Shown one piece after another: positions 29,655 through 57,866 of a stretch of 64,000 nucleotides of DNA (positions are counted from its first letter, which is position 1; each line of letters opens with the position of its first letter). Location: the sequence record MH791411.1. One strand, given 5' to 3'. A model generated the notes under the pieces. It searched no databases. It saw only the letters and a program-made list of their open reading frames with translations, and was not told the DNA's origin. The translations under genes and the position numbers were made by a program. This DNA is from Escherichia phage Ecwhy_1.

Positions 29655-30155
29655 TTAGGTCACAGCTTTGTATTTCTCCATTGCTTCGGTGATATTCAAT
29701 ACTGCTTGCGGTACGTCACTTTTGTTGTATGCAATGGTTAGTTTTTCCATGTTATTGAGAAGACTTAGAAACAATGGAAGTACTTCTGCATTGTCACTGA
29801 AGTTACAATCATTGACAGTACTCAATTGAAATAACTCACCAGCATCAACATTGAGTGTGTTGTATTCTTTAACAATGTTTTCTTCAGTATTGAAGATGTA
29901 GAATACAGTCCCCATGTGGTGTAAGTATACACCAGTATCATTCTGAATATGACATGGGGTGATTACAATTGCTGTGTTATCAATATTATTTACTATTGTC
30001 AAACGCAGACTATGTAACCCAAAGATTACAGTACAATCCTTTGTACTGTGTTGGATCTGGTCACTAGTAAAGGAAGACCCACTATGATTTTTAGATCCAT
30101 TTAGTATTTCTTTGATAATTTTAAATGAATACTTCATCGAATTAGTTAAAAGCAT
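29655..30155 (-). CDS. hypothetical protein
   Basis: 166 aa ORF. Confidence 0.5.
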   Translation of the reverse strand: MLLTNSMKYSFKIIKEILNGSKNHSGSSFTSDQIQHSTKDCTVIFGLHSLRLTIVNNIDNTAIVITPCHIQNDTGVYLHHMGTVFYIFNTEENIVKEYNTLNVDAGELFQLSTVNDCNFSDNAEVLPLFLSLLNNMEKLTIAYNKSDVPQAVLNITEAMEKYKAVT

Positions 30156-30555
30156 GAACTTTACCTTTAAGTAAATTAATTAATGATCGCATAGATTCAG
30201 TACTGACAGTACCAAAATCAACACCTAAGCACTCGTATTGAAAGAACTCAATAGAATCAATTGAGTCCAAAGGAATCTCAACAACCTGATTCCCTATACC
30301 AGACATAGTAACATTGCTTTTATTAATCGTCAAGAAGTTTTTTGAATAAGTATTAAATTTTAGTGAAATCGCATCGGGGTGCTTTGTAACAATGCAGTAC
30401 TGGGAGCCATACACATATAGTACTTTACTTTCACTAAGATCCGTTTTAAAAAAATGAATCCCATTGAAGTATTTCTCATTGGCTCCCATCGCCGCGATTA
30501 GTTCATCTGTTGTTGTTAACCTTGTTTCGTTCTTCGTTAAACTGTTGAAAAGCAT
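30142..30555 (-). CDS. family A-like paralog
   Basis: 137 aa; S-I-E-F-F-Q-Y-E. Confidence 0.5.
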   Translation of the reverse strand: MLFNSLTKNETRLTTTDELIAAMGANEKYFNGIHFFKTDLSESKVLYVYGSQYCIVTKHPDAISLKFNTYSKNFLTINKSNVTMSGIGNQVVEIPLDSIDSIEFFQYECLGVDFGTVSTESMRSLINLLKGKVHAFN

Positions 30556-30976
30556 AGAATACTACCTTAACCATTTGTAGTGTTTCAGACATTACTTCTG
30601 ATGAAAATTCAACATCATTGAATTTCAGCATAGTGTTCTGTGTAAAGAAAGTTGCTTCTAAGTCTTCCAGATTGAAGGGTTCATCAAACAAATTAGTACT
30701 GAACATGTCAGTCTTCTTCTTGTATGTGAACAAGAATTTGGAATTATAACGAAGAACTATTTCATCTTTATTAACCAAAATACGTGCAATGTTTTGACGT
30801 GTCAATGTGGTAATGTTTAAATTGAACACGTTCTTGCGTGTTTCAGTGATATCAACAAAATACCCATCTCCCTGATGGATATTACATCGTACATCCAACC
30901 CTTTCTGTACTGTATTGAACAGTGCATCTTGAATAAAATAATTTGCTGTATCGATGTTTCCTAAAATGTCTAACAT
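30503..30976 (-). CDS. hypothetical protein
   Basis: 157 aa ORF. Confidence 0.45.
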   Translation of the reverse strand: MLDILGNIDTANYFIQDALFNTVQKGLDVRCNIHQGDGYFVDITETRKNVFNLNITTLTRQNIARILVNKDEIVLRYNSKFLFTYKKKTDMFSTNLFDEPFNLEDLEATFFTQNTMLKFNDVEFSSEVMSETLQMVKVVFYAFQQFNEERNKVNNNR

Positions 30977-31488
30977 AACTTCTCCTTGATTGCTGTCATA
31001 TTTAGAAGAAATTCTTCAAGCAATTCCTCTGTAACATACTCAACATACCAGAATATCACAATATCTTTTGAAAGTCGAGTATTCTTAAAAATATCTACTA
31101 ACTCTTTGTAGTACTCAAGATCATATACATCTTTTATAATTAGTGAGTACTGAAATAGTGATTCTTCAGTTAACTTAAATTCTGGATATAGTAAGTCATT
31201 AAATTCTAATGATTCTGATTGTACTTTTATTTTAGTGAAGTCATTTGTTAATCCACCATTACATCCATATAATGCAGCGTAATTCACGAACTTGGCTTTT
31301 GGATTAAAATCAAGAACAGTTTCACCATTATATGACAATCGGTGGAACGCCGTGAACTTTGTAATTTGCCACGGTTGCTTAATATCTAAGTCATTTATGT
31401 CTTTATTATTGTACATAAGAACAGTGAATATTTCAGCAATCTTCAATAATAATTTAGTACGTGCTAGTACTGTCATAGGTTCAATCAT
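30970..31488 (-). CDS. family A paralog
   Basis: 172 aa; T-E-E-S-L-F-Q-Y-S-L-I. Confidence 0.55.
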   Translation of the reverse strand: MIEPMTVLARTKLLLKIAEIFTVLMYNNKDINDLDIKQPWQITKFTAFHRLSYNGETVLDFNPKAKFVNYAALYGCNGGLTNDFTKIKVQSESLEFNDLLYPEFKLTEESLFQYSLIIKDVYDLEYYKELVDIFKNTRLSKDIVIFWYVEYVTEELLEEFLLNMTAIKEKLC

Positions 31489-31901
31489 TATACACCTTCA
31501 TATTCATCAAGGAAATCTTCGATGATCATTTCTGCGTCATCCATGTGCATAGCATCAACTTCGACAATGCGAACCTTAGACGTATCCCAAATCATATAGC
31601 TAGAAACTGTATCTGGTTCGTAATCGTTTTTGTACTGAACTGCATCATAGCCGTTAATTTCGCAGTACTCAATCACTCCACGCCATTCGTCATCACTGCC
31701 CATATCCGTCCACAGAAGCACGTTATCAACATCAACTTCTAAGGTATGTAAGTATACTGTATCAGCGTCAACAACGTTCAGTGGGCTTCTAAGCTTGCGT
31801 AATGCAGCTTCTAAAGCACTGTGTTTACCTCCCATATGAAGACCACCATACGGGATATAAAAGTTATCAATTTTTACAGTACTCGCATGATACAGTTTCA
31901 T
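31488..31901 (-). CDS. hypothetical protein
   Basis: 137 aa ORF, no family motif. Confidence 0.5.
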   Translation of the reverse strand: MKLYHASTVKIDNFYIPYGGLHMGGKHSALEAALRKLRSPLNVVDADTVYLHTLEVDVDNVLLWTDMGSDDEWRGVIEYCEINGYDAVQYKNDYEPDTVSSYMIWDTSKVRIVEVDAMHMDDAEMIIEDFLDEYEGV

Positions 31902-31910
31902 AATTCATTC

Positions 31911-32495
31911 CTATTTCAGTACTTTGACCAGGGCTTTAACCGCTGTTTCAAGTTGTGCAAAGTCGTTGATTGTAAGATAATGAATACCCAATGTACTCAT
32001 TTCTGAATCTATTTTACTATACAAATCGAACATGTCAAGTAGATATTGATATGTATATGACTCCGATGACACACATGATTCTTGAAATAGACGTTCTTCC
32101 ATATCATTTACTACTTCATCATTTGCGTCTCGAATCACACCATCTTTGTATGTGTAGTAAATCTCATCCCATTCATCTGATAAGCGGAATAGTAAAGGTT
32201 TACCATTAAACATCTCAAGGTCATATGCATTGACTTCACTCAATAACATATCATCAGGATCAGGTGTGAAATCGAATTGAGCGAGTGAAGAACCATCATA
32301 ATCCTTAAGGAATACACCAATAGCATTCAATTTAACTTCGCCATAATTGCCATTCTTGAACTTTACACGAATATTAATATCAATGTTTTGAACAGTATCA
32401 TCATCTTGGAATTGATAATCAATTTTATACTTTTCCCAAAGTTTTTTAATATCTTTAAAGTACTTAATTTTACTTTCTATTTCTTTAAAGTTCAT
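31911..32495 (-). CDS. family A paralog
   Basis: 194 aa; E-E-R-L-F-Q-E-S-C-V. Confidence 0.55.
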   Translation of the reverse strand: MNFKEIESKIKYFKDIKKLWEKYKIDYQFQDDDTVQNIDINIRVKFKNGNYGEVKLNAIGVFLKDYDGSSLAQFDFTPDPDDMLLSEVNAYDLEMFNGKPLLFRLSDEWDEIYYTYKDGVIRDANDEVVNDMEERLFQESCVSSESYTYQYLLDMFDLYSKIDSEMSTLGIHYLTINDFAQLETAVKALVKVLK

Positions 32496-33123
32496 CTGGA
32501 ACCGCCATCTCTTGTATGTTCTTGCATTTTATCATTGCACAATTAGTATGTAAAATGATAGCGTACTTGTGTAATGATTTAATTTTATAACACTCATTAA
32601 GTACTGAAATGATGCCCCATAACTCTTCTACATCAATAGTGATAGGTTCACTAGTACTAAGTTGCATTAGTGCTGCTTCCACATCATCTTTGTTATTGAT
32701 TTTGAACTGCATACCACGTTTCAGTATTTTGGTTTTTGGGTTATACTCTGCCATTACATCACCTTCAGGGTAACCCTCGTGTAATAATAATGTAGTCTCA
32801 TAATCTCCACAATTGAAATTAATTTCATCATAGTCAGGAACACAAATCATTCCTTCACCATATTGATTATCTACTGATTCGATTGTTAAAATACGCTGAT
32901 GTTCATTACTCAGGATAATAGAATCATGCCAGTACTGCGTAGTGAATTTACTACGTTTCTTTTGACAGCACATACTTGACATGGGACCATACTTTTTATA
33001 TAGGGACTTCTTGAATGCTATCGCATCAGGAGCCACCTTAATAACTTCTCGAATTAGGTCAATAGCTTCTTGATAACTTTTTCTCATTTGTCGTACCCAT
33101 ATAAAATATGATCTAGTGTGCAT
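32485..33123 (-). CDS. hypothetical protein
   Basis: 212 aa ORF. Confidence 0.5.
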   Translation of the reverse strand: MHTRSYFIWVRQMRKSYQEAIDLIREVIKVAPDAIAFKKSLYKKYGPMSSMCCQKKRSKFTTQYWHDSIILSNEHQRILTIESVDNQYGEGMICVPDYDEINFNCGDYETTLLLHEGYPEGDVMAEYNPKTKILKRGMQFKINNKDDVEAALMQLSTSEPITIDVEELWGIISVLNECYKIKSLHKYAIILHTNCAMIKCKNIQEMAVPDEL

Positions 33124-33635
33124 TGTACTTCTTCATGGAAGAACAGTGGGTAAATTTGTATCAATTTTTCTTTAAGTTCAAGTGAATGGCATAATTCTAA
33201 TGCTTTGATACAATCTTCATATTGAACTAAGCTATGTATTGTACTTAACTGGAAATGTTGTTCTTCAGAGTAAGCTAAATCATATACCAAATTATCATCT
33301 AAAAGGTTTGATTTCTTTGAAGGATCAAGTACTGTGTTGCTATGACCTACCCAGAAAAAAGCATTGGTGTTCATATTATTACAACCCCAACCTGCCCCCA
33401 TTTTCTGGTGAATAGCAAAGACACAACTATCATAGAGATTAATACCAAGACGTTCTTCGTTGACATAAATCGTAACACCATCGATTGTCATGGTTATTTG
33501 GAAACGCATTGAACCTTCACTTCGTGAACGTGCACAGAAGCCAAGATAACGGTTAATAATTGTATTGATTTTATCTGCCCATCCTTCCACATCTTTGGAT
33601 GCACATAATTTAAAAAGATCATGACTTTGATTCAT
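33084..33635 (-). CDS. family A paralog
   Basis: 183 aa; E-E-Q-H-F-Q-L-S-T-I-H. Confidence 0.55.
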   Translation of the reverse strand: MNQSHDLFKLCASKDVEGWADKINTIINRYLGFCARSRSEGSMRFQITMTIDGVTIYVNEERLGINLYDSCVFAIHQKMGAGWGCNNMNTNAFFWVGHSNTVLDPSKKSNLLDDNLVYDLAYSEEQHFQLSTIHSLVQYEDCIKALELCHSLELKEKLIQIYPLFFHEEVQCTLDHILYGYDK

Positions 33636-33646: not shown

Positions 33647-34228
33647 TTAATCAAGCATAAGTGGCATCATCGCCCATATCTTTTTCATAATCATATCTTC
33701 AGTAAAAACAAACGTTTTAGGTGCAGTATATGATATTGACAACCCAAATGGAAGTACGATTGCATCATCAATTATATTATGAATATCAAACCATGTTTTT
33801 ACACAATCATATGGTGGAAGTTCATGTATTGTACTTAACTGAAAGTATTGTTCTTCACCAAATGTACTGCAATCAATATCACAAATTTTAGTGAATTGAT
33901 GATTCCATTTAGATATAATACTGTTTTTATTATTGAACATATTAGTTCTATGCATGAAACCATTTCTGCTAATATGATTTGATATTGCGTTTTCTTCAAT
34001 ATCATTGCTTATTTTAAAATTCATGTCAAAGTTGTAGTGCGAACTCGACGATTCTTTGAATTTTAAATGAAAATAACGATTGTTATTAATTTCCATTTCA
34101 ATACAAAACACATCCGAATCAAAACGATTAAACTTGTAATCGTTGTCTTCAGGTAGAGTCTGTAGTTTTTTCATAACACCAAGCATAGGGTGCACTAAGC
34201 TTCTAATAAAATCATTAGTTATTTTCAT
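33647..34228 (-). CDS. family A paralog
   Basis: 193 aa; E-E-Q-Y-F-Q-L-S-T-I-H. Confidence 0.55.
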   Translation of the reverse strand: MKITNDFIRSLVHPMLGVMKKLQTLPEDNDYKFNRFDSDVFCIEMEINNNRYFHLKFKESSSSHYNFDMNFKISNDIEENAISNHISRNGFMHRTNMFNNKNSIISKWNHQFTKICDIDCSTFGEEQYFQLSTIHELPPYDCVKTWFDIHNIIDDAIVLPFGLSISYTAPKTFVFTEDMIMKKIWAMMPLMLD

Positions 34229-34721
34229 AGTATTCCTTTAGAACTTTAAATGATTCAACAATACAATCTTGTGTGTAATTAGAACTATATACAATTGCAT
34301 TTGATTTGATTGACCACAGATATGACATAAAGGTTATAACACTACTACATGAACTTAATGTATTGTTTTGGAATTCATTTTCTTCAATGTTATCAGTACT
34401 GGTATTGATGAATTGGATAGTATCTTGTTTCTGATTAGACATTGAAACTAAAGTACAATCAGTATAAGGAGTGTACAAAAACGTCTCATTACTAATTGAA
34501 CTATCATTAGTATATGATGGTTTGGTAATATAAATCAAACGCATGATATCACGCTCAATACCCGATTTACGACTTTCCACTAAAGAAATCATATCTATAT
34601 TTTTCATATGATCAACATTGACATGGAACTTTTTGTTTAGAATTACATCTTTTGGGGAATTTTTATATGAAGATAAGATCTCATACATCTCAACTAATTC
34701 TCGTGCATTTAATAAACTCAT
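34215..34721 (-). CDS. family A-like paralog
   Basis: 168 aa; E-E-N-E-F-Q-N-N-T-L. Confidence 0.5.
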   Translation of the reverse strand: MSLLNARELVEMYEILSSYKNSPKDVILNKKFHVNVDHMKNIDMISLVESRKSGIERDIMRLIYITKPSYTNDSSISNETFLYTPYTDCTLVSMSNQKQDTIQFINTSTDNIEENEFQNNTLSSCSSVITFMSYLWSIKSNAIVYSSNYTQDCIVESFKVLKEYYENN

Positions 34722-35146
34722 GTTTTGTCTCTTAATGAAAGAATATCCTTAGTATAAACTGAAACTGAAATATGATTATATTTCATCATTAATTTATACA
34801 CATAAGAAGCTAGTACTAAATCGTAAATTAATTTAGTATCATACAGTACTCCGTATTGTAAAGCAAGTGAATCAATATCATCTTTACTTTCAATATCCAG
34901 AAATGTGCCGAAATATGTAGTACCGTAGAGATGAAAATTGGAATTAATGCAATCAATGCATTCATTGTCCAACAGAGTAGATGATGATGCCCTCGGTGAA
35001 TCCCAAATAGTCACTGCGTGTATGCCCTCAACGAACAAATCTATCCATATTTTGTGTCGTTGTCTTTTTTTTGTTTTATAATTTTCTGGATTTGAAAGTG
35101 TAGTTTCAATTATATCCCATATGTATAAGCATTCATCTCTTGTCAT
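34718..35146 (-). CDS. family A-like paralog (degenerate)
   Basis: 142 aa; L-A-L-Q-Y-G-V-L-Y-D. Confidence 0.45.
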   Translation of the reverse strand: MTRDECLYIWDIIETTLSNPENYKTKKRQRHKIWIDLFVEGIHAVTIWDSPRASSSTLLDNECIDCINSNFHLYGTTYFGTFLDIESKDDIDSLALQYGVLYDTKLIYDLVLASYVYKLMMKYNHISVSVYTKDILSLRDKT

Positions 35147-35724
35147 TATAGCACCTTATCCATTGCTGCATTTAATGCTTTTAAACGATCAACATTCAAA
35201 GTATTGAAGATGTACGTTCCTAAAATGTGGAAATCGAACTGGTACTTTTTGTATGTGTGATAAATTAAACTACAAAAAATAACAGTACTAAGAACCTCTT
35301 CAGGTATAACGGTGCTCATCTGAAACAGTTCTTCATCAACTGTACTTGATTCTGGATTGATAGCTTTTAACTCATACTCTTTATCACCGAATAGTACTTT
35401 AATATTATATAAAACACCAACAGTACTAATATGAAATGGATGGTGTGAAAAACTTCCATCATCATTAATTTGGATATCGGATCTAATCTCGCACTCTTCA
35501 TTACTTTTACTATTATTTTTTACAATACAAATATTCCTGGCACCAGAAATAGTAAGAATACCGTGATCGTAATATTCTTTGGACATACATTTAGATGAAA
35601 ATGACACATCACGAATGAGGTAATGTTTGTTAATTTCTTTGGCACTACCAACAATGTGTAGCATCTTTGTACTGATATCATATAGCTGTTGGTGTCGGGC
35701 TGTCATATAACTATAAGCGTTCAT
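35146..35724 (-). CDS. family A paralog
   Basis: 192 aa; D-E-E-L-F-Q-M-S-T-V. Confidence 0.55.
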   Translation of the reverse strand: MNAYSYMTARHQQLYDISTKMLHIVGSAKEINKHYLIRDVSFSSKCMSKEYYDHGILTISGARNICIVKNNSKSNEECEIRSDIQINDDGSFSHHPFHISTVGVLYNIKVLFGDKEYELKAINPESSTVDEELFQMSTVIPEEVLSTVIFCSLIYHTYKKYQFDFHILGTYIFNTLNVDRLKALNAAMDKVL

Positions 35725-36295
35725 ATGTATCCTTGATGTTTTTGATTGCCGTGTGTAGCTCTTTTAATGTATCGGATTCACAGTTAATGAACTTACTATA
35801 CATTACCAATTCACCAGTGTCAATAGCTTTTGCAGTTTCATAGCAAAGCATCATGTACTCAAACTCCTTGAAGTTGTCAAGTACTGATCTCTGGAAAATG
35901 TATGCTTCACGAATGTCTTCACTTTGATCTAGTTCTGGTGGAATTTCCAAATATGTATCATTCTCTACGTCATCAAAATTAGATTCAACAATTCGATTAA
36001 TATCTTCGTGTAAAGCATTGACAAATATCATGTTTGGAGTAATGGAACCAATTCGCTCACTATGCCTTGATGTACGGATATACATTGCCATAGTATCCCA
36101 TGAACCTTTTTTTGTCGTTCCATAATCGTAAACTTTATAAGACTCCAGTACTACTGAACCAAAACGATATGGTGATTTGCATTCAACTTTAAGACGATAA
36201 TTTCCAATAGGCTCATGTTCAGTAATGTTGTGCTTTTCAGATAGTTCTGCAATGTCATGCATCAATTTCATAATTTGAATGTGTTCAGCTTGCAT
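35711..36295 (-). CDS. family A paralog
   Basis: 194 aa; E-A-Y-I-F-Q-R-S-V-L-D. Confidence 0.55.
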   Translation of the reverse strand: MQAEHIQIMKLMHDIAELSEKHNITEHEPIGNYRLKVECKSPYRFGSVVLESYKVYDYGTTKKGSWDTMAMYIRTSRHSERIGSITPNMIFVNALHEDINRIVESNFDDVENDTYLEIPPELDQSEDIREAYIFQRSVLDNFKEFEYMMLCYETAKAIDTGELVMYSKFINCESDTLKELHTAIKNIKDTYERL

Positions 36296-36885: not shown

Positions 36886-36914
36886 ATTATAACACACCTG
36901 AATGCTCATGTAAA
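36886..36914 (-). promoter_or_regulatory. sigma70-like promoter TTTACA-N17-TATAAT with TG extension
   Basis: Revcomp of 36886-36914 = TTTACAtgagcattcaggtgtgtTATAAT; AGGAG RBS and ATG of 36295..36858 follow. Confidence 0.55.
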
Positions 36915-36920: not shown

Positions 36921-36945
36921 AACACAAAAAGACCCATAAGGGTCT
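36921..36945. terminator. intrinsic terminator hairpin (usable on both strands)
   Basis: AGACCC-ataa-GGGTCT with A-run upstream and T-rich run downstream; abuts stop of 36946 gene. Confidence 0.5.
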
Positions 36946-37464
36946 TTATTTTGGTAAAACGCTGTCAATGTACGCTAGAGCCTCATCTCGGAGGTACGTT
37001 CCATCTATTGTTATGTAATAATTCTTAGGGATATCACTCCCAATCTTCTCGTAAATTTTCATACATGATATCACATCTTCATCACAAATGGTACTCAATT
37101 GAAACTGTACTTCATCAGTTAAAGGTACGATATCATGTTTAGATGGGGGGTTGGTATTTTCATTCAAAACAATATCAAACAAATTAGGAGTATTCTTTGA
37201 CGAAATGTAACGATGTTTACTACGAATTACCATTCTCGACAGAGAAATACTGGAACTCCATCTTTGGTCCACATCTTCGTATGTTAACGCAATTAACATT
37301 TCATAATAATCTTGGAATTTCATTGATGCATAATATGTTTTGTCCTCACCGTACATTCCAAATGATTTGAATTCAATGTCACCTACATTGTGTGTATCGC
37401 TATCACTATTCACGAATTTTAAAAGACTGTTGATTAGTCTGATTAGAATATCATCTTTATTCAT
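36946..37464 (-). CDS. family A paralog
   Basis: Track ORF (TTG at 37530) trimmed to ATG 37462-37464; E-V-Q-F-Q-L-S-T-I. Confidence 0.5.
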   Translation of the reverse strand: MNKDDILIRLINSLLKFVNSDSDTHNVGDIEFKSFGMYGEDKTYYASMKFQDYYEMLIALTYEDVDQRWSSSISLSRMVIRSKHRYISSKNTPNLFDIVLNENTNPPSKHDIVPLTDEVQFQLSTICDEDVISCMKIYEKIGSDIPKNYYITIDGTYLRDEALAYIDSVLPK

Positions 37465-40738: not shown

Positions 40739-40797
40739 TGTGATATAACCCTTTACAATTAATATAAAGAGATTATATCACAAAGATTTGGAGGGTG

Positions 40798-46172: not shown

Positions 46173-46174
46173 TA

Positions 46175-47082: not shown

Positions 47083-47083
47083 T

Positions 47084-50064: not shown

Positions 50065-50347
50065 ATATATTTTGTCTGAATACCTGAAGCAATTGAACTA
50101 AACTCTGTTGCATAATAATATGCATCGCTAAATTATCAAAGGCCGTTTCGTGTTGGAATCGTGCAGCTTCATCTTCTATGAAATTCGGAACTTGGACTGG
50201 ATTCTCAAAATTTGTCCTTGTACTGAACTGTACATCATTGTCCTGTACCTTAATACCATATGAATTATCATTGTTATCAACTACATCAAATTCAATTAAA
50301 CTACCATCTTTACTGACGTTTACTATATAAACTGAAAATCTACTCAT
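50003..50347 (-). CDS. family A paralog
   Basis: 114 aa; E-A-A-R-F-Q-H-E-T-A. Confidence 0.5.
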   Translation of the reverse strand: MSRFSVYIVNVSKDGSLIEFDVVDNNDNSYGIKVQDNDVQFSTRTNFENPVQVPNFIEDEAARFQHETAFDNLAMHIIMQQSLVQLLQVFRQNIYVHEVSINGIQSSVLFGTNM

Positions 50348-50862
50348 AATCCTATTTCCTTTAAATCTTCCAAAAATGTTTCATAATCACTTAAGGAAAA
50401 AAAGATATCCGTATCGATGTTCGCATCTAATACATTATACAAATTCTGCATCTGTAACACATCAGGAGCATCAATCAATGATTGCTGGAAATATGCAGCT
50501 TCATCTTCTAAAATATCCCTGAATGTTCTCTCTCGTACTCTGTGGTGTACTGAATTGAATATTGATTTCTCATCCTTAAGCATTGGTAGGTATCGAATGT
50601 ACATGTGTTCTCTTAGCTCAGGACTGATGGAACCCCTGAACTGTAACACGTATTCGAAGCACATAGCAACATCCTGAAGGTAATTGGCACTGTAATTATT
50701 GCTGTAAACAATCTTATGACTTCTGAACTCATCATCATTTCTGAACCAATTGTCACCTACTTTGGTGTACTTATGACTAAGCAATCCACCCTCTAACGCT
50801 TTGATGATCTTCAAAATGTTGTGTGCAAATGCATATGATGTATTGTACTTGGCCTGATACAT
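50344..50862 (-). CDS. family A paralog
   Basis: Track ORF trimmed to ATG 50860-50862 (MYQAKYN) with GAGG RBS; E-A-A-Y-F-Q-Q-S-L-I. Confidence 0.5.
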   Translation of the reverse strand: MYQAKYNTSYAFAHNILKIIKALEGGLLSHKYTKVGDNWFRNDDEFRSHKIVYSNNYSANYLQDVAMCFEYVLQFRGSISPELREHMYIRYLPMLKDEKSIFNSVHHRVRERTFRDILEDEAAYFQQSLIDAPDVLQMQNLYNVLDANIDTDIFFSLSDYETFLEDLKEIGL

Positions 50863-50875
50863 GTGTGCCTCAACC

Positions 50876-51070
50876 TTATCTTGTGTTAAAATATTCACTG
50901 AAATGATTATAACACAAAAGCACCACGATGTTAAGCACTCTGTTGTCAAAATCATCTTGTGATGTAGGATGCAATGACGCATTGATGTTAAAATTCACTA
51001 TATCATTGTGGAATTGGTATGTGAACAAATCAAACTTCGTATGCCTTTGTTTGATATCATAGGCGGTCAT
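50876..51070 (-). CDS. hypothetical small protein
   Basis: 64 aa ORF between two family A genes. Confidence 0.3.
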   Translation of the reverse strand: MTAYDIKQRHTKFDLFTYQFHNDIVNFNINASLHPTSQDDFDNRVLNIVVLLCYNHFSEYFNTR

Positions 51071-51071
51071 A

Positions 51072-51680
51072 TTATATATTCAACCCTTTAACAATGGAAA
51101 TAAATTCTTTGTAAACATTTTCAGGTAAAGCTCTACTACCATAAAGAACACTAAATTCAGGTAACATATCCGAAATCTCTTTCGCTAAATTTATTTCATC
51201 CCTGAACATTTGCACAGGCATGATATCCTGTACCAATGATAACTGAAAGAAAAATGATTCAATATCTTCATGCACCTCTGAATTTAAATAAATCTCTTCT
51301 GGAAACTGGGCTGTACTGTAATAATAAAATACGTCAATTCTTTTTTCATTATTTTGTACAAGAGGTAAATTTCTTTCGTCTCTCTTATTAATATTTGTTT
51401 TCCATGACTCAATGTTATTCGGAACCCAAAACTCATAAGGTGTCTTCTCTCCTGAAATATTATCCAGCTTCAATCCATAATATTCACTTTCGCCGTACTT
51501 TTGCTTCAAAACAATACCTGTACTACTAATGTTTACAATGTACGTATCAACAATCCCTTCTGTGGTAAAAGGAATATTTAACTCTGAACCTTCAGGGTAC
51601 TTAGCATTGAATGCATCTAATGCTTTACTTAGCACTGGAATTGCACTTGCACTGTACTTCATTAATTGGTCTATGTTCAT
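51072..51680 (-). CDS. family A paralog
   Basis: 202 aa; E-S-F-F-F-Q-L-S-L-V. Confidence 0.55.
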   Translation of the reverse strand: MNIDQLMKYSASAIPVLSKALDAFNAKYPEGSELNIPFTTEGIVDTYIVNISSTGIVLKQKYGESEYYGLKLDNISGEKTPYEFWVPNNIESWKTNINKRDERNLPLVQNNEKRIDVFYYYSTAQFPEEIYLNSEVHEDIESFFFQLSLVQDIMPVQMFRDEINLAKEISDMLPEFSVLYGSRALPENVYKEFISIVKGLNI

Positions 51681-52321
51681 TTTAATTCCCCTGTAATCAC
51701 TGCATTTACTGCACTTGATGCAAATAAACTGATATTTGAACGATACATATCGTACACTGTACTTTCTTTCTTGTGCACAATGAAATCATAAAGATCAACA
51801 AATGCAGGAATAATAATCTTGAATGATTTATTTGGGTACGTCCCAAAATCAACTGTACTCAATTTTGCAACGAGCATAACAACAAAGATTTCTTCTGGAC
51901 TATACACTGTACTGTACTGAAAATAATCCTCTGCACTCATGGCACTCATTGCATTTATATCTTGTGTTTGTAATGTAATATTAAGACAATCAAAAATATA
52001 ATAAAACTCTGATTTGTTTTGTATTTTGTATTTGTCAATTGGGGTATCTCTCATGAACCATAAACGATCTTGTCCATAAAAAGGAATGATTGAATTTGGG
52101 GAAGCCAGAAATACTTCTTCTCTATCAATATCCTTTAACTCAATTTGCATACCGGATGAATTGGCAATAATTAATTCATTAAAAATATAATGAACCTTGT
52201 GTACAATCTCTTGTACTGAATTGAAATCATCTGGTATTTTAAAATTTTCCATAGGTATCTCCTTAAAATGATTACACATTGTACCATGCATTTGTACTCG
52301 TGTCAAACAAAAAAAGCCCAT
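51677..52321 (-). CDS. family A paralog (start uncertain)
   Basis: 214 aa; A-E-D-Y-F-Q-Y-S-T-V-Y. Confidence 0.55.
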   Translation of the reverse strand: MGFFCLTRVQMHGTMCNHFKEIPMENFKIPDDFNSVQEIVHKVHYIFNELIIANSSGMQIELKDIDREEVFLASPNSIIPFYGQDRLWFMRDTPIDKYKIQNKSEFYYIFDCLNITLQTQDINAMSAMSAEDYFQYSTVYSPEEIFVVMLVAKLSTVDFGTYPNKSFKIIIPAFVDLYDFIVHKKESTVYDMYRSNISLFASSAVNAVITGELK

Positions 52322-52324
52322 ATC

Positions 52325-52822
52325 TTACGATACAGGCATGTTTATTTGAATTTCATTGTACAAATCATCAATATATAGACATGAAAACGATAAACTTTCT
52401 TTAACTATATTGTTGTGATAAAGCATTTTAAATGCAATATAGAAAAATAAATCAATATCATCATGTACTAAATTCTGCTGGAACCACCACTCTTCTGTTA
52501 AATCTTGTGCATTAAAATCATCAGGAACTACAATTGACGACATATCAGCATCTTCTTTGTACTCAAACCACATGTCGTCATTTGGATAACGTTCATGCTT
52601 CTCTGGGTAACAATTGCTGGGATTAAATGCTAAAATATAAAATGCCGTCGCAGAATGTTCTTTATTATAAAATGAATTATTCCACACCTGATACCTTTCA
52701 CCAACATCAAACTCTTTTGATACTGATGTTATTGCACATAATGTACGATATATTGTTTCTATTTTGTGAACAAATTTAAAGGCTGCATCTAAACTGAACT
52801 CTAAATCAGACATGCGGTGCAT
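52325..52822 (-). CDS. family A paralog
   Basis: 165 aa; T-E-E-W-W-F-Q-Q-N-L-V. Confidence 0.55.
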   Translation of the reverse strand: MHRMSDLEFSLDAAFKFVHKIETIYRTLCAITSVSKEFDVGERYQVWNNSFYNKEHSATAFYILAFNPSNCYPEKHERYPNDDMWFEYKEDADMSSIVVPDDFNAQDLTEEWWFQQNLVHDDIDLFFYIAFKMLYHNNIVKESLSFSCLYIDDLYNEIQINMPVS

Positions 52823-53142
52823 AAAATTACCTCAACTAAAATAAGAACGGTATTGAATTCGATGCAACCTTTGATACCTTGATTGTACATGTACTTTGCT
52901 ACTACATATTTCTGTACTAAATTATAATTATTAAATTCCTCAAAATTGTAATTTAGAATGAAATTTGTACTCAAAAATAACTTATGCATCTCTAATGCAC
53001 TCTGATAATATTTGTACAACTCTCTGATATCAATACTTTGTAAATCACTTTGTTCATATCTATGATAAGGAATGGCTTCAATTTCAATACTATAAAACCA
53101 TTCTCTTAACTTCTTAATATCAAATGTATTATTCAGCTTCAT
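52801..53142 (-). CDS. hypothetical protein
   Basis: 113 aa ORF, no family motif. Confidence 0.45.
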   Translation of the reverse strand: MKLNNTFDIKKLREWFYSIEIEAIPYHRYEQSDLQSIDIRELYKYYQSALEMHKLFLSTNFILNYNFEEFNNYNLVQKYVVAKYMYNQGIKGCIEFNTVLILVEVILCTACLI

Positions 53143-53698
53143 AACTCAATACCTCCATTAAGCACTCATAAACACCATCAATCGCATAAGCACAAAAACT
53201 GAAATTAATTTTGTTATTCTTGTGTAATGGACTATTGTATACTGTACTCAACATAACACTATAAAACAAAGAACGTTCATGTGTAAATAATGATTCCTGA
53301 AAAAATGCTTCCTCTGATTTAATTTTATTATATTCAATCGATTGATCATTAGAATAAAATGAATCTTGATTTGAATTGTACCATGTGTAATCCAAATCAT
53401 TCTTTGATATAACTGGTGTTGGATTAAACTGTAAAAGACTAATAACACTACGGGCATTTGGGGTATCAGGTGTATTGAATCGTTTGTCAAAATAACTTGT
53501 GCACGCAATATGTGAATCAAAATCAGATGGTTTAAACCCCATGAATGCGTTAATGATTCTTGTATATGGTTTTTTATTATGTGCTGCTTTCTGTACATTA
53601 TATAAGGCTGCAACAATACAAGCTAACTTTTGTCCCATTAGGATTGCATTAGCGTAGGTGTACTGAATTTCATTGCTGGTACGGTACTTCGAGATCAT
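53129..53698 (-). CDS. family A paralog
   Basis: 189 aa; S-E-E-A-F-F-Q-E-S-L-F. Confidence 0.55.
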   Translation of the reverse strand: MISKYRTSNEIQYTYANAILMGQKLACIVAALYNVQKAAHNKKPYTRIINAFMGFKPSDFDSHIACTSYFDKRFNTPDTPNARSVISLLQFNPTPVISKNDLDYTWYNSNQDSFYSNDQSIEYNKIKSEEAFFQESLFTHERSLFYSVMLSTVYNSPLHKNNKINFSFCAYAIDGVYECLMEVLSYEAE

Positions 53699-53996
53699 GG
53701 AACAGCCTCACTTTGCCTAACTCGTCATTGGATATTAATTCGTTAACAGCTTTCTGTATATTCTTTAATAATAGCACATCAAATCCTTTTGTGTCAAGCA
53801 CACATTGCATTTGGAAGAATTCTTCTTCTGATAATGTATTAAAATCCACAAAATTGTCTAATATTACGTCATTATCCAAATGTGCCATGTACCATGTATT
53901 TCTTTCGGAGCGTTTGATAAAATTCCATCCATCTGGATAATCGGGTTCTAATTCTACATATATCCCTGATAATGTATAAAGCATTTTATACTTCAT
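53670..53996 (-). CDS. family A paralog (MKYKMLYTL pair)
   Basis: Track ORF (GTG at 54020) trimmed to ATG 53994-53996 by paralog comparison; S-E-E-E-F-F-Q-M-Q-C-V. Confidence 0.5.
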   Translation of the reverse strand: MKYKMLYTLSGIYVELEPDYPDGWNFIKRSERNTWYMAHLDNDVILDNFVDFNTLSEEEFFQMQCVLDTKGFDVLLLKNIQKAVNELISNDELGKVRLFHDLEVPYQQ

Positions 53997-54016
53997 AACT
54001 ATTGTACTCATTGCTT

Positions 54017-54328
54017 TCACTGTACGTCGATGTCATAATACGCTCCTACCTCATAATCTTTCTTGCTTTGGAATTCATTAACGGCTTTCTGTATATTTCT
54101 TAATGTTACCATGTCATGTCCGTACATGTCAACCACCAATTGCATTTGGAAAAATTCTTCTTCAGATAATGTATTAAAATCTATAAAATAATCCGTAACA
54201 ACCTGTGCGTCTAAATTTGCCATGTACCATTGATTGGTATCGACCTCTTTAACCAAATTCCATGCATCTGAATCGGATTCTAATTCTACATATATTAATG
54301 TTAATGTATACAGCATTTTATACTTCAT
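54017..54328 (-). CDS. family A paralog (MKYKMLYTL pair)
   Basis: 103 aa; S-E-E-E-F-F-Q-M-Q-L-V; AAGGA RBS. Confidence 0.55.
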   Translation of the reverse strand: MKYKMLYTLTLIYVELESDSDAWNLVKEVDTNQWYMANLDAQVVTDYFIDFNTLSEEEFFQMQLVVDMYGHDMVTLRNIQKAVNEFQSKKDYEVGAYYDIDVQ

Positions 54329-54878
54329 AACTATATCCTTGCATTAAAAGATCATAAGCAATATCAACTAATTCTAAACGAATGAAAAATTTTAAATTAT
54401 CTTTCAATGGATTCAAATGCATTGTACTAAACAACATAAGATACTTCATTTGATTTGTATTGTATATTAGGGATGTCTGAAATACTTCTGCTTCATTGTA
54501 AGGATCAATGAATTTTATACCTTCTTCACTATAATCCGTTTTGGAATTCTGATATATAAAATAATCATCACCATAATTGTACCACAAATAACCTTCAAAA
54601 CTGGAATCAAATTCTGAATTTTCATTTCGCATTAAAGGTGATACTGAAATTGGATTTGAACCAACTGTTGCACAAACCTCAATGAAAGCATCTTCATTTC
54701 CCTTAACTTCTTCTTTGATTTTATCATTGTACTGTCCTGCAAAACCAGCTTTTACTTCCAAATATAAACTACTCCCAACTTTATTAATTCTTAAAAGGGA
54801 ACTCTGTACTGTATTCGCATTGTCCAGCACTAACGATATTGTGCAAATCTTATGTACCAATAACTCAATATCATTCAT
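54318..54878 (-). CDS. family A paralog
   Basis: 186 aa; E-A-E-V-F-Q-T-S-L-I-Y. Confidence 0.55.
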   Translation of the reverse strand: MNDIELLVHKICTISLVLDNANTVQSSLLRINKVGSSLYLEVKAGFAGQYNDKIKEEVKGNEDAFIEVCATVGSNPISVSPLMRNENSEFDSSFEGYLWYNYGDDYFIYQNSKTDYSEEGIKFIDPYNEAEVFQTSLIYNTNQMKYLMLFSTMHLNPLKDNLKFFIRLELVDIAYDLLMQGYSYEV

Positions 54879-55211: not shown

Positions 55212-55622
55212 CTAATCGTGCCATTTAATAGGATACTCCGTTCCATTTATTGTATAAGATATAATCCATCCGTAATGAATAGGATGATTTTTGTCTGAAA
55301 CAGGAATAAAATATAAAGATGTACTGGGGTTATAACTGAATAAATCGTTGTTACCAATTGTAAAATGTGATAACTCAATCTTCCTTGTACCTGTACTTGG
55401 ACGAAGAACATTCTTAACACCGAAGACTGTACCTTGATATTTCTCGGAAAATTCAAACAATGCATCTGCAATTAAATCACGAAACTCCGCATGTATGGTT
55501 TCAAAAAAATCTATATTACACGATGTTTTAATATCCTTGAACTCCTTATATAAAGAGCTTCTTGTATTCAAAAGAAATATTACTTTTTTAAGATCCTGAA
55601 CTATTTCTGGATTCATATTCAT
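55212..55622 (-). CDS. hypothetical protein
   Basis: 136 aa ORF. Confidence 0.5.
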   Translation of the reverse strand: MNMNPEIVQDLKKVIFLLNTRSSLYKEFKDIKTSCNIDFFETIHAEFRDLIADALFEFSEKYQGTVFGVKNVLRPSTGTRKIELSHFTIGNNDLFSYNPSTSLYFIPVSDKNHPIHYGWIISYTINGTEYPIKWHD

Positions 55623-55872
55623 TTATCTCATTCTGTAACTTAAGCATCAAAATTTGCATATTAATTTTTTGTACAAGATGATTGAGAAATTTCTGTACTG
55701 TATCTTCTTGTTCTTTTGTACCAAGATAAAATAACATATTAAATTCAGATAATCTCAGAGCGAAATCTTCCTCTCCCCCTCGTAAACAAAAATCCCTGTA
55801 CTTTGAAGCATACAAATAAGCATCTATCTTTTTATACCTTTGGGTCTGCATTGTATCTCCTTTTTCATGCAC
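55588..55872 (-). CDS. family B paralog (interspersed copy)
   Basis: 94 aa; F-Y-L-G-T-K-E-Q-E-D-T-V. Confidence 0.5.
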   Translation of the reverse strand: MHEKGDTMQTQRYKKIDAYLYASKYRDFCLRGGEEDFALRLSEFNMLFYLGTKEQEDTVQKFLNHLVQKINMQILMLKLQNEINEYESRNSSGS

Positions 55873-56036
55873 CTTATTAGATTATCAACGTATTGATCCT
55901 GTACTATTGTCCCTAGATAAAATGATACTTCGAACTCTGATAATTTTATATTGAAAGGATCTACATATACATCTTTAATAAACTCTTTGTACTTCAACAT
56001 ATATGCATTAGGTATATTCTTATATATCGATTTCAA
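55824..56036 (-). CDS. family B paralog (interspersed copy)
   Basis: 70 aa; F-Y-L-G-T-I-V-Q-D-Q-Y-V. Confidence 0.5.
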   Translation of the reverse strand: MKSIYKNIPNAYMLKYKEFIKDVYVDPFNIKLSEFEVSFYLGTIVQDQYVDNLIRCMKKEIQCRPKGIKR

Positions 56037-56331
56037 TGATCCTCCCTGACATACCTTGTATTAGCTTATCATACATATCGAGCATCACTTTTTGAATACT
56101 AATTAATACTGGCATCGTGCAAATATCAATGTCGTATATTAAGCTGTACTGGAATAATTCCTCTTCCTGCATGTGTACTAAATTAGGTAAAAGATAATTG
56201 TCTGCCTCTTCATCCTGGTACTTGAAATGCATAACACCATCCTTTTTGTACAAAAGAATGTCAATATCACCTAACTCTTCTGCATAACCAAAAATACATA
56301 TACTCGATGTTTTTGCTATATTAAATTTCAT
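56020..56331 (-). CDS. family A paralog
   Basis: 103 aa; E-E-E-L-F-Q-Y-S-L-I-Y-D. Confidence 0.55.
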   Translation of the reverse strand: MKFNIAKTSSICIFGYAEELGDIDILLYKKDGVMHFKYQDEEADNYLLPNLVHMQEEELFQYSLIYDIDICTMPVLISIQKVMLDMYDKLIQGMSGRIIEIDI

Positions 56332-56340
56332 ATTCTTCTC

Positions 56341-56691
56341 TTATATGTAGAATTCACATACGCGTTGAACAAAATTCTTTGGAAGATGACAATGTGCAAT
56401 CATCTGCTTTTGTACTTCCTTCATGTCTTCGAATGTAAATCCTAAAGAATCATCATGTACTAACAAGTACTGAAACTCTTCTTCTTCAGAGATAGAACAT
56501 AAATTCGGTACTGAAATTGTTTTTGCTTTTCTTGCACCCAATTTCCAATGAAAAGAATTATTGCATTTTCTGTACTCAAATATCTTCAACCCAGAACCTG
56601 TATTAAAATCAGCTACTACAATGTAACATGAATTCTTACGTACAATACAATTGAACTTACGCATTATCTCCACCTCTCTCCGTCTGTACAA
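56341..56691 (-). CDS. family A paralog
   Basis: 116 aa; S-E-E-E-E-F-Q-Y-L-L-V-H-D. Confidence 0.55.
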   Translation of the reverse strand: MYRRREVEIMRKFNCIVRKNSCYIVVADFNTGSGLKIFEYRKCNNSFHWKLGARKAKTISVPNLCSISEEEEFQYLLVHDDSLGFTFEDMKEVQKQMIAHCHLPKNFVQRVCEFYI

Positions 56692-56909
56692 GAGTACTGG
56701 TACGTTGTCGTTAGGGTAGGGACCATGTTGGTAATGGGCATATTATTAACAATAACGGTAACAGGCATAAGTATCGTCTCTACTCTACTCTGTCCTGTCC
56801 TTGTGCAATTCATCTTTTGCATTTCATCGGACTCCATGAAATACAATACAAATGGTGCAATCCCAAGAACAATACACAAGACGATAAGGAAATTTAAAAA
56901 ATTCAACAT
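56664..56909 (-). CDS. hypothetical small membrane protein (strand ambiguous)
   Basis: 81 aa with hydrophobic N-term; a plus-strand ORF 56725..56931 with a TM helix covers the same DNA. Confidence 0.3.
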   Translation of the reverse strand: MLNFLNFLIVLCIVLGIAPFVLYFMESDEMQKMNCTRTGQSRVETILMPVTVIVNNMPITNMVPTLTTTYQYSCTDGERWR

Positions 56910-56970
56910 AATTTTCTACCCTAATGATTAACGTACAGGTACTATATCAGTAATGAAAAGTACTGTCAAG

Positions 56971-57345
56971 CTAGTATTGCACTGTTCTAATGAAAGTACC
57001 TTTACTCATGGATTTAAGCTTATGAACCTCTTCCTGTATACCCTTGATTAACCCTAAAGGTATAGGTACATCATGTACTAAGCTGTACTGAAAGTATTCT
57101 TCTTCAGATAAAGTACTAACATCTGGAATACCAATTTTAGTTATATAATCTTGATGTGTTGACCAATAAATTATATCTTCAGTACTATTGTACTCCCCAT
57201 ATACTGAACAATATTGATGAATATCTTTCATGTATCCTTGAGCAATAAAGAACTTATCTACTGCATTACCAGCATTAATAGAATTCACTTCGATTGTCAC
57301 AGTACTTGAGCTTGTTTTTCCTTTACTATGCATATTAATCCCCAA
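56971..57345 (-). CDS. family A paralog
   Basis: 124 aa; S-E-E-E-Y-F-Q-Y-S-L-V-H-D. Confidence 0.55.
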   Translation of the reverse strand: MGINMHSKGKTSSSTVTIEVNSINAGNAVDKFFIAQGYMKDIHQYCSVYGEYNSTEDIIYWSTHQDYITKIGIPDVSTLSEEEYFQYSLVHDVPIPLGLIKGIQEEVHKLKSMSKGTFIRTVQY

Positions 57346-57521
57346 ATTAGATATCGAACACTATCAGCTTGATAGTTAGTTCCTACTGTGTGTTTTAATA
57401 TTAACTCATCTTTCAGTACTGAACATTCTGCATTAGATATAGGAAGAGAATTAATTCTTTGAATTTCTGGTCGCAAAATACCGCGAAGCTTGCGGTAATC
57501 TTCGTATGATAATATTTTCAT
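57297..57521 (-). CDS. family B paralog (interspersed copy)
   Basis: 74 aa; V-G-T-N-Y-Q-A-D-S-V. Confidence 0.5.
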   Translation of the reverse strand: MKILSYEDYRKLRGILRPEIQRINSLPISNAECSVLKDELILKHTVGTNYQADSVRYLIWGLICIVKEKQAQVL

Positions 57522-57524
57522 TGT

Positions 57525-57866
57525 TTAGTACTCAACGATGTGTTCTTCATAACCATTAAACTCCGGTTTAGTTTCTTTCATTAGGACTACCATTTTATGT
57601 ACTAATGGCATAGGAAATTCTAAATCCCATACTAATGATTCTTGAAAGTATTCTTCTTCAGATAAAGTACTTAAATCTTTAATATCAACGTGCTTGTATA
57701 TTTTATTTTCGTAATTAAGAAATGATATATATAAATCATTAACATCAGAATCATAAGTAATTGTGAATGGCTTACCCTTGTAGTCCATTACATCTTTACA
57801 TAGACTGCATTTGATATATGTATGTTCTTCTGAACTGTATACATTGAGTTGTATATTAGTTTTCAT
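57525..57866 (-). CDS. family A paralog
   Basis: 113 aa; S-E-E-E-Y-F-Q-E-S-L-V-W-D. Confidence 0.55.
   Translation of the reverse strand: MKTNIQLNVYSSEEHTYIKCSLCKDVMDYKGKPFTITYDSDVNDLYISFLNYENKIYKHVDIKDLSTLSEEEYFQESLVWDLEFPMPLVHKMVVLMKETKPEFNGYEEHIVEY

Follow-up and report, generated by a model that had tools for sequence, protein, structure and literature searches.

What do jumbo coliphages gain from a 28-kb run of short, similar open reading frames (ORFs)? We analyzed a 64,000-nucleotide stretch of DNA from Escherichia phage Ecwhy_1 (sequence record MH791411.1), hereafter the window. Between positions 29655 and 57866, profile Hidden Markov Models (HMMs) identified 42 ORFs of 103–214 amino acids (aa), all on the minus strand and arranged head to tail. 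The locus is called array A, and its genes, which form a single family of 42 homologs, are called family A. We propose, with a probability of roughly 0.45, that the array is expressed early and supplies a repertoire of intracellular binders or inhibitors for differing host or defense proteins.

We assessed membership in several ways. A strict regular expression for the shared C-terminal motif matched 32 ORFs on the minus strand, whereas the 83 plus-strand ORFs gave no match. An HMM of the C-terminal module, seeded with these matches and iterated to convergence (the module HMM), retrieved 40 ORFs at E < 1e-3 (best 3e-19), all within 30970–57866. Full-length HMMs of a short type (A1, 14 sequences) and a long type (A3, 26 sequences) brought in 37457–38023 (E = 3.6e-6) and 29655–30155 (E = 1.5e-4), for a total of 42. 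The reversed sequences of all 273 ORFs gave no match with any of the three HMMs. Family A accounts for 76% of the ORFs of at least 100 aa in 29655–57866 (42 out of 55) and covers 19.8 of the 28.2 kb. The first-pass annotation of this DNA had described an array of paralogs with a common C-terminal signature, and the regular expression, the HMMs and the reversed-sequence and plus-strand controls agree with it. Its count of 45–50 copies was slightly high, 42 being statistically supported. The end at 57866 holds, but the array starts at 29655 and not at 30142, as the ORF at 30142–30555 is not supported as a member. The example motifs that it quoted are present where it placed them, except that the copy at 47084–47575 reads EEYYFQQSTVYDD and not ...FQNST....

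In the alignment of the 40 module sequences the Q is invariant and the F is at least 90% conserved. We extended the alignment to 134 copies from the window and the phages Turkey5, 121Q and RaK2 and obtained the consensus [ST](60%)-E(75%)-E(67%)-x-[YLF]-F(99%)-Q(100%)-x-S(83%)-[LT](91%)-[VIL](94%)-[YHFW]-[DN]. Hydrophobic positions beside F-Q are conserved as well, and overall identity among copies is merely 16–20%. The motif aligns across members and has no reversed-sequence or plus-strand matches, so it is not the compositional artifact that the first pass had named as a possible refutation.

We searched for known domains and homologs. No Pfam family reached its cut-off among 10 members searched at E ≤ 1, and none matched any of 26 members at E ≤ 0.01. 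The best hit among PDB sequence profiles had E = 0.17. PADLOC returned two isolated marginal matches (E = 0.005 and 0.009), each in one of 26 members. In PHROGs, the members are divided among over 15 families, none of known function (12674, 9317, 13866, 15629, 28549, 28680, 30978 and others). The earlier impression that the signature belongs to no described domain is thus borne out by Pfam, PADLOC, PDB sequence profiles and PHROGs. A Foldseek search of BFVD retrieved only uncharacterized proteins of 121Q, SP27, RaK2, Serratia phage BF, Yersinia fHe-Yen9-03, GAP32 and Erwinia pEa_SNUABM_47, and a word-indexed protein search gave 17 matches, to close relatives only. When 1.84 billion cluster representatives were scanned exhaustively with HMMER, we obtained 112 clusters at E < 1e-3, all of 49–241 aa, with the module C-terminal in every one and fused with another domain in none. 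Two short matches (49 and 65 aa) look like truncated ORFs. The weakest match (P0125) was rejected as a tetratricopeptide repeat (TPR) false positive, the sole clear one; its repeated LDEAEGYFQQSLVI indicates that the motif helix is TPR-helix-like at the sequence level. Because about 40 mutually dissimilar copies can come from a single genome, 112 clusters represent a very narrow distribution. Array DNA had no match in 5426 complete E. coli genomes (RefSeq) or in PLSDB plasmids, and we rejected a prophage, plasmid or carrier state in E. coli on this basis. Several family members labeled 'hypothetical protein [Escherichia coli]' in NCBI (P0002, P0004, P0005) lie on 347–358 kb contigs that are whole Asteriusvirus genomes filed as E. 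coli assemblies. Databases annotate every copy as a hypothetical protein, and our literature searches found no description uniting the family or reporting its motif. As far as we can tell, this is a new protein family, undescribed in the literature that we searched.

By megablast, the window belongs to the Asteriusvirus group of jumbo coliphages (121Q/PBECO4). The region at 5–12 kb is 100% identical, in reverse orientation, to Escherichia phage fEgEco12 (PP777464.1); the array segment at 44–50 kb is 97% identical to fEgEco12 and 85–87% identical to 121Q and PBECO4. Phage phAPEC6 has ~88% DNA identity over the array segment tested. As a rough mapping, the fEgEco12 record position equals 85,918 minus the window position p. 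The direct terminal repeats of fEgEco12 measure 20,993 bp and are experimentally supported (PMC13070987), so that, on this mapping, the right end of the window falls ~1 kb inside the left terminal repeat. Array A then corresponds to ~28–56 kb of the phage genome, with its genes reading away from the left end. The mapping places array A just inside the 21-kb left terminal repeat, in the left arm of a Rak2-like jumbo coliphage. All substantial ORFs of the window are on the minus strand, and GC content across it is 29–38%.

We compared the locus with those of related phages. Directly downstream of the array, at 29139–29612 (minus strand), lies a conserved gene that is not a member of family A and marks the same locus in other genera. 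This anchor gene matched 71 phage records by tblastn, is 53–63% identical in RaK2, GAP32, CBB and Erwinia and Yersinia phages, across the whole Rak2-like group, and has a ratio of nonsynonymous to synonymous substitution rates (dN/dS) of 0.02 against 121Q. In the related genomes, a co-oriented array lies directly upstream of the anchor ortholog. With HMMs derived from the window, we counted 41 copies in 121Q, 34 in Turkey5 and at least 30 in JNE01, whose record ends within the locus. In Klebsiella phage RaK2 (Alcyoneusvirus), a 40-kb stretch holds 28 copies or more, all sharing the core seen in the window (for example, TEEGYFQYST). In GAP32 (Mimasvirus), about ten genes encoding 140–207 aa lie directly upstream of the anchor (GAP32_048–057), and Yersinia phage fHe-Yen9-04 (Eneladusvirus) has a similar gene run there (g027–g037). 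These two phages have ~8–10 copies each by the F-Q motif and four each at E < 1e-3. The orthologous ranges, some non-members included, are 342–408 in 121Q, gp404c–gp466c in phAPEC6 and ORFs 363–439 in RaK2. By these homology searches, the family is restricted to one clade, the Rak2-like jumbo phages.

Copy number therefore varies from ~8–10 to 42 among related phages, a comparison that the first-pass annotation had proposed as a check. Across the genomes compared, the counts indicate that an ancestral set of ~8–10 copies expanded to 28 or more in RaK2 and 34–42 in Asteriusvirus, in part through local tandem duplication. Growth by local tandem duplication is visible in that the best paralog lies no more than two positions away for 16 of the 42 members; 4.0 would be expected at random, and 2000 trials gave at most 12. 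Examples are five GPW-D/G-S/T-EE-YYFQ copies at 45263–47575 and three copies at 47585–48710. The best paralog within the window is usually 25–58% identical. More than half of the RaK2 copies (15 out of 28) are nearer to a window copy than to any RaK2 paralog, in syntenic order, although bit scores are low. Given this low paralog identity and the one-to-one nearest copies in RaK2, much of the expansion seems older than the divergence of the phage genera infecting E. coli and Klebsiella, with copies kept individually since. Such individual retention would speak for distinct functions and not for dosage.

We assessed selection on the copies. The 121Q orthologs are colinear, one to one and 41–96% identical at the amino-acid level. 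Their dN/dS ranges from 0.07 to 0.74 (median 0.26, interquartile range 0.17–0.34), with a median of 0.09 for six flanking non-array genes. These ratios indicate that the copies are under purifying selection. Synonymous divergence between neighboring ortholog pairs of the window and 121Q runs from 0.04 to >2.3, and this mosaic suggests frequent recombinational exchange of single array genes between Asteriusvirus lineages. The selection estimates also bear on the idea that the array is a compositional or annotation artifact, or a set of decaying, non-functional duplicates. The genome is AT-rich (31–34% GC) and the motif is degenerate in some copies, as that idea would predict. It is nevertheless refuted by the absence of opposite-strand and reversed-sequence matches, HMM E-values down to 1e-19, dN/dS well below 1 for almost all copies, orthologs kept in four genera and independent structure predictions that are confident and mutually consistent, and we regard it as having next to no chance of being correct.

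An immunity- or antitoxin-like repertoire against a range of toxins (bacteriocins, abortive-infection effectors or the effectors of competitors) has more to recommend it. Immunity gene clusters of polymorphic-toxin loci are typically tandem arrays of small, diverged, single-domain alpha/beta paralogs. The family A proteins would likewise be cytoplasmic and acidic, and copy number differs among genera. Yet the copies correspond one to one between E. coli and Klebsiella phages and are not shuffled. The array ORFs scanned yielded no toxin-like gene or domain, and no toxin partner; no SUKH or Imm Pfam family matched members or interspersed ORFs scanned at E ≤ 0.01, and PADLOC gave the two marginal matches described above. 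We consider this explanation distinctly unlikely.

To describe the fold, we ran AlphaFold2 with an input alignment of window paralogs only. The short member at 47941–48300 (119 aa) was modeled with a mean predicted local distance difference test score (pLDDT) of 85 and a predicted template modeling score (pTM) of 0.81. Its model consists of five strands, the motif helix (residues 66–75, EAELFQESLV), a second helix (84–100) and a last strand. The long member at 45681–46172 (163 aa) reached a pLDDT of 87.6, with 96–98 over the conserved part, and a pTM of 0.82; it has an additional N-terminal helix, seven strands, the motif helix (109–115), a helix (121–135), a strand and a short C-terminal helix. 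This long model superimposes globally on the independent BFVD model of a 121Q paralog of 30% identity (template modeling scores 0.77/0.86). Because the models are confident over the whole chain and superimpose globally, the protein is probably one compact alpha/beta domain with the signature as its conserved structural core. In the models, S/T-E-E would form an N-capping box, with F, Q and the next L/T-V/I facing the core. The first-pass annotation had described a conserved C-terminal module next to a variable N-terminal region, as in modular families, and the whole-chain confidence and the superposition favor one domain instead. The N-terminal halves are variable in sequence, as it had noted, but they are not unrelated: the long type has a common N-terminal helix and a predicted beta-sheet, and the models suggest that this variable sheet is part of the single domain. 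The fold of both modeled members has no solved relative in our searches and is probably new. We dropped a likeness of Q-x-S-L-x-F to clamp-binding or PIP-box motifs, as the segment is an ordered helix and the +5 aromatic is limited to one subgroup.

The fold predictions weigh on two further explanations, both of which draw on three protease genes lying close together in the same window, 25–57 kb downstream of the array (196–858, 1139–1747 and 4679–5374). In fEgEco12 they are annotated as protease (g216), head maturation protease (g214) and protease (g207), and related records label the window genes ClpP-like. According to the first explanation, E-E-x-Y-F-Q-x-S is a protease cleavage site resembling the tobacco etch virus (TEV)/NIa consensus E-x-x-Y-x-Q↓G/S, or the products are internal head proteins. 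Many copies fit E-x-x-Y-x-Q at P6, P3 and P1, and two contain the full consensus with G at P1′, 39777–40259 (EEMYFQGS) and 44067–44513 (EEGYFQGS). P1′ nonetheless varies among Y, L, E, Q, N, M and further residues, being G or S in only 2 of the 42 copies, and the motif is predicted as a well-ordered helix (pLDDT > 90) and not as an exposed linker. The window proteases are annotated as ClpP and T4 gp21-like types, and we saw no 3C- or NIa-like protease among the window genes. Prohead proteases of the T4 type cut after the Glu of L/I-x-E. No ortholog occurs in the virion proteome of phAPEC6 (see below). We rejected a TEV-like site on the variable P1′, the predicted helical burial and the virion mass spectrometry, and cleavage or packaging of this kind seems very improbable. 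The matches to the TEV consensus are probably coincidental because the segment is predicted to be an ordered helix. The full consensus also occurs in RaK2 L006 20555–20977 and 22401–22892. The TEV-like copies matter if the proteins are expressed with TEV-cleavable tags.

The second explanation treats the array as an adaptor library, in which the F-Q helix and the next helix dock on one common partner while the variable beta-sheet picks the targets. Candidate partners include one of the ClpP-like proteases of the phage, a host AAA+ protease or RNA polymerase. Poxviruses have large terminal paralog families with a conserved C-terminal docking motif (ankyrin/PRANC, BTB-kelch) that bring many targets to one machine. 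In family A, Q is invariant and F is 99% conserved over 134 copies despite the low overall identity; an invariant polar residue is unusual where the role is purely structural, all 112 database clusters have the conserved part at the C-terminus, and the three ClpP- or prohead-protease-like genes are nearby. Against docking, AlphaFold predicts one confident globule with the motif in a helical segment of pLDDT 96–98 that is not a separable tail, and the hydrophobic positions flanking F-Q are conserved, as for a core helix. A free-standing module is absent from the databases scanned. An adaptor library, whichever of the candidate partners it served, is unlikely. It is more doubtful still that F-Q is a docking handle by which ~40 adaptors address one shared machine, which would make the array a bacterial-virus counterpart of the poxvirus substrate adaptors on a fold without a solved relative.

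Returning to the proposed repertoire of early binders or inhibitors, we examined properties expected to bear on it. The median isoelectric point (pI) of family A is 4.8, 36 of the 42 proteins are below pI 6, and net charge is as low as −30. A hydrophobic stretch above the usual transmembrane threshold (~1.6) occurs in one copy only, and this stretch lies in an N-terminal ORF extension that is probably untranslated. By predicted properties, the proteins are soluble and mostly acidic. The most acidic copies (net −30, −23 and −19) can be compared with the anti-restriction DNA mimics Ocr and ArdA, although the family median pI is near the 5.4 of neighboring genes and there is no fold or sequence match.

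We then considered the signals for expression. Shine-Dalgarno-like tetramers precede 23 of the 42 starts, compared with 11% of random positions, and overlaps of 1, 4 or 11 nt with the preceding gene are common at the starts, as in an operon. Only five intergenic gaps in the array reach 59 nt, and four of these hold a 10–12/12 match to the sigma-70 consensus with an extended −10 TG, all on the minus strand. A perfect TTGACA-18-TG-TATAAT (12/12) is located at 40772–40801, in the 59-nt gap upstream of 40256–40738. Matches of 11/12 are found at 36886–36914, in an 87-nt gap just after a terminator-like hairpin (36928–36947), and at 56941–56969 in a 61-nt gap, and a 10/12 match is found at 50997–51025 in an 89-nt gap. 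One more minus-strand 11/12 site with TG (52278–52306) directly follows a terminator-like hairpin with a T-run (52316–52337). All 11 promoter-like sites scoring 11–12/12 are on the coding strand. What is informative here is only which sites score highest, on which strand they lie and that they fall in gaps. The T4-late-type TATAAATA does not occur in the whole window. The GAP32 record annotates TTGACA-N15-17-TATAAT promoters in the same arm, 7–14 kb upstream of its array. In the related phage CBB, a long stretch of short hypothetical ORFs, suspected by the authors of the CBB study to be early host-takeover genes, carries a cluster of RpoD-like promoters with UP elements, and more RpoD-like promoters lie downstream in the terminal repeat (PMC5259590). 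Host-type promoters in four of the five longer gaps suggest that the array genes are early.

The virion proteome of phAPEC6 comprises 62 proteins and has no entry between gp347 and gp549 (PMC7247149). The array orthologs gp404c–gp466c fall into this blank and are thus absent from the proteome. Insofar as orthology is a guide, the proteins are therefore non-virion in this relative.

These observations fit an inhibitor or binder role, given early-type promoters, absence from virions, acidity and solubility. In the mechanism that we propose, unmodified host RNA polymerase would transcribe the array from near-consensus, extended −10 sigma-70 promoters. Each paralog would then bind, via the common scaffold, a different intracellular host protein and neutralize or redirect it. 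The targets would be host-takeover targets or components of anti-phage defense, and the array would be a repertoire and not a dosage amplification of one function. Several points weigh against this proposal. The dN/dS values are well below 1 and only a little higher in the N-terminal part than in the module (0.27 vs 0.24), and there is no arms-race signature at gene-wide resolution. Long one-to-one conservation across genera argues against rapidly changing targets. Shuffled sequence has at least as many sigma-70-like sites overall, literature searches found no Asteriusvirus transcriptome, and we infer early timing from promoter consensus and analogy. Acidity is only modestly above that of neighboring genes (median pI 5.4). 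Likewise, we infer the packing of the motif helix on the sheet from confidence scores and superposition alone. No structural or sequence relative of known function was found. The remaining probability belongs to functions other than those named here, which may include roles in the phage's own replication or assembly.

The 42 members are described here from the promoter-distal to the promoter-proximal end, with their motifs and module HMM E-values; all are on the minus strand. The most distal is the long copy at 29655–30155 (GELFQLSTVND), detected with the A3 HMM and scoring E = 2e-3 against the module HMM, and its best RaK2 counterpart sits at the same end of the RaK2 array. Further long copies follow at 30970–31488 (EESLFQYSLI, 8.5e-10), 31911–32495 (EERLFQESCV, 5.6e-14), 32485–33123 (EAALMQLSTS, 5.3e-12; the sole copy with M replacing F), 33084–33635 (EEQHFQLSTI, 1.1e-6), 33647–34228 (EEQYFQLSTI, 3e-14), 35146–35724 (DEELFQMSTV, 2.8e-16) and 36946–37530 (DEVQFQLSTI, 7.4e-11). 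The long copy at 37457–38023, detected with the A3 HMM, has a degenerate motif and is the best match of RaK2 ORF L006 25007–25615 (53.5 bits); it is followed by the long copy at 38546–39040 (EESYFQNSLI, 8.1e-13). Short and long types then mingle: short copies lie at 39028–39441 (PDELFQYSLV, 1.6e-15) and 39425–39784 (EEELFQESTV, 1.3e-15), and long ones at 39777–40259 (EEMYFQGSCI, 3.9e-14), 40256–40738 (EEEFFQYSTL, 2e-12) and 40798–41388 (EENYFQQSLL, 1.2e-10). Two short copies at 41339–41677 (TGELFQESLV, 6.5e-8) and 41667–42026 (EDELFQESLVWD, 5.9e-18) precede long copies at 42625–43221 (EENIFQNSLM, 1.9e-11), 44067–44513 (EEGYFQGSTV, 4.2e-12) and 44503–44952 (EDAYFQYSTI, 4e-11).

Bordering the region of visible tandem duplication, the short copy at 44952–45266 (ETFLFQESLVWD, 3.2e-15) adjoins long copies of the GPWDSEEYYFQ subgroup at 45263–45706 (1.4e-16) and 45681–46172 (2.3e-17; modeled) and of the GPWGTEEYYFQ subgroup at 46175–46615 (2.3e-13). 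Beyond these are the long copies at 46612–47082 (EEFYFQQNTI, 1.4e-13) and 47084–47575 (EEYYFQQSTV, 4.4e-17), and the short copies at 47585–47944 (DVELFQASLVFD, 3.8e-16), 47941–48300 (2.9e-19; modeled) and 48297–48710 (DAALFQEALVFD, 3.2e-12). Long copies are found next, at 49438–50064 (EEMLFQYKTV, 1.4e-8), 50344–50982 (EAAYFQQSLI, 2e-9), 51072–51680 (ESFFFQLSLV, 7.7e-12), 51677–52321 (AEDYFQYSTV, 7.3e-15), 52325–52822 (EEWWFQQNLV, 2.4e-13) and 53129–53698 (EEAFFQESLF, 1.9e-10). For two of them the longest ORF probably overstates the protein: the true start of 50344–50982 is probably ~40 codons downstream of the longest-ORF start, the PHROG alignment beginning at residue 41, and that of 51677–52321 is probably also downstream, the alignment beginning at residue 15. 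The remaining copies are short ones at 53670–54020 (EEEFFQMQCV, 5.1e-16) and 54017–54328 (EEEFFQMQLV, 1.2e-14), a long one at 54318–54878 (EAEVFQTSLI, 3.3e-10), and short ones at 56020–56331 (EEELFQYSLI, 1.2e-17), 56341–56691 (EEEEFQYLLV, 6e-12), 56971–57345 (EEEYFQYSLV, 3.3e-16) and, closest to the promoter end, 57525–57866 (EEEYFQESLVWD, 2.6e-14).

Other ORFs in the array are less clearly related. About five carry a degenerate motif and reach hhalign probabilities of 14–47% even with profiles built from orthologs (43534–44070, 30142–30555, 35711–36295, 34718–35146 and 34215–34721). Possible degenerate members among them, both on the minus strand, are 43534–44070 (DEQCFQLSCTD; hhalign of the ortholog alignment against the module profile P = 47%, E = 2e-4; HMM E = 0.014–0.06) and 30142–30555 (IDSIEFFQYECL; hhalign against the short-type profile P = 33%; HMM E > 1). 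At least five interspersed ORFs show no relationship to family A (31488, 36295, 38020, 42032 and 52801). The ORFs at 30503–30976 and 31488–31901 are apparent orthologs of differing genes conserved in GAP32 and fHe-Yen9-04, their C-termini having been compared by eye.

Outside the array, the first pass had reported two degenerate copies, and neither is upheld. The ORF at 17882–18571 has HMM E = 0.1–0.9, with one pairwise phmmer hit at E = 1e-4 (to 33084–33635), and that at 24870–25415 lacks the Q and has HMM E > 3. Motif look-alikes with an L-M-M/L tail occur in three larger non-array proteins, at 26098–26946 (residues 73–83, PDELMFQLML), 17882–18571 (MSEEEHFQLMMM) and 24870–25415 (TEEEFNLMMRYG), and all three were non-significant with an HMM built from five phages. 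A similar FQLMT occurs in one significant GAP32 family member. The three look-alike proteins may be distantly related to the family or match by chance. The ORFs at 26098 and 28123, each of 282 aa, are not paralogs of one another.

The window contains other paralog families. A second tandem family (B) of at least 31 ORFs encoding 63–94 aa, with the motif L-G-T-[ND]-[YF]-Q-[EN], occupies 57856–63814 and continues past the window end. Family B lies upstream of array A, extends toward the terminal repeat and is interleaved with family A at the boundary; copies are interspersed at 43169–43360, 43338–43556, 55588–55872, 55824–56036 and 57297–57521. Family B corresponds to PHROG 4148 (unknown function), has no match in Pfam and shows a median dN/dS of 0.35 against 121Q. 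A third family of five ORFs of ~90–120 aa (13691–14050, 21178–21462, 21425–21736, 21747–22058 and 22312–22581) was detected by all-against-all phmmer and corresponds to phrog_32291/21004 (unknown function).

We compared family A with known systems. Paralogs in Rak2-like phages have been noted before: they make up ~10% of the products of RaK2 (PMC3622015), and 22 paralogous ORFs are listed for CBB (PMC5259590). The hypothetical families of these phages are the same genes as family A, agreeing in motif, in size and in their position upstream of the anchor gene, but databases split them into more than 15 PHROGs, unlike the single family defined here. The 42 genes represent ~6% of the 670 genes of the phage and 20 kb of one undescribed family, which has long been kept in four genera of jumbo phages infecting E. 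coli, Klebsiella, Cronobacter and Yersinia, several of them in development for therapy. If the proteins are individual inhibitors of host or defense functions, they would provide a ready-made set of ~40 natural binders on one small scaffold. Cloning and one-by-one screening in E. coli would be easy, could reveal takeover targets or anti-defense mechanisms and could help explain the large genomes of these phages.

The largest phage paralog expansion highlighted so far is that of ~35 zinc-ribbon proteins in Bacillus phage G, which a survey of jumbo phages called unprecedented (Iyer et al. 2021, PMC7824862). Family A is likewise a very large expansion in a jumbo phage and, with 42 copies, equals or exceeds it in size; it differs in its fold (no zinc ligands or conserved Cys/His pattern), in the phage group and in having no DNA-binding prediction. 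Sheet-plus-helix folds that can be named for comparison are the Polo-box domain, the RNA-polymerase beta-lobe and p32/Mam33-like proteins. Early gene modules for host takeover are found in the terminal redundancy of Bacillus phage SPO1 and the pre-early region of T5. Like array A, these lie beside or inside a terminal repeat, with strong host-sigma promoters and many small non-structural proteins of unknown function, but they consist of unrelated small proteins whereas array A has ~40 paralogs of one fold. The terminal families of African swine fever virus (ASFV; MGF110/360/505) and poxviruses (Bcl-2-like, ankyrin/PRANC, kelch) act in host range and immune evasion. They too comprise dozens of diverged tandem paralogs beside a terminal repeat, in one direction, non-structural and with copy number varying by lineage. 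They have no sequence or fold relationship to family A, the host of array A is bacterial, and array A is more stable, with one-to-one orthologs across genera. In architecture only, and not in membership, the terminal multigene families of ASFV and poxviruses are the closest organizational analogy to array A.

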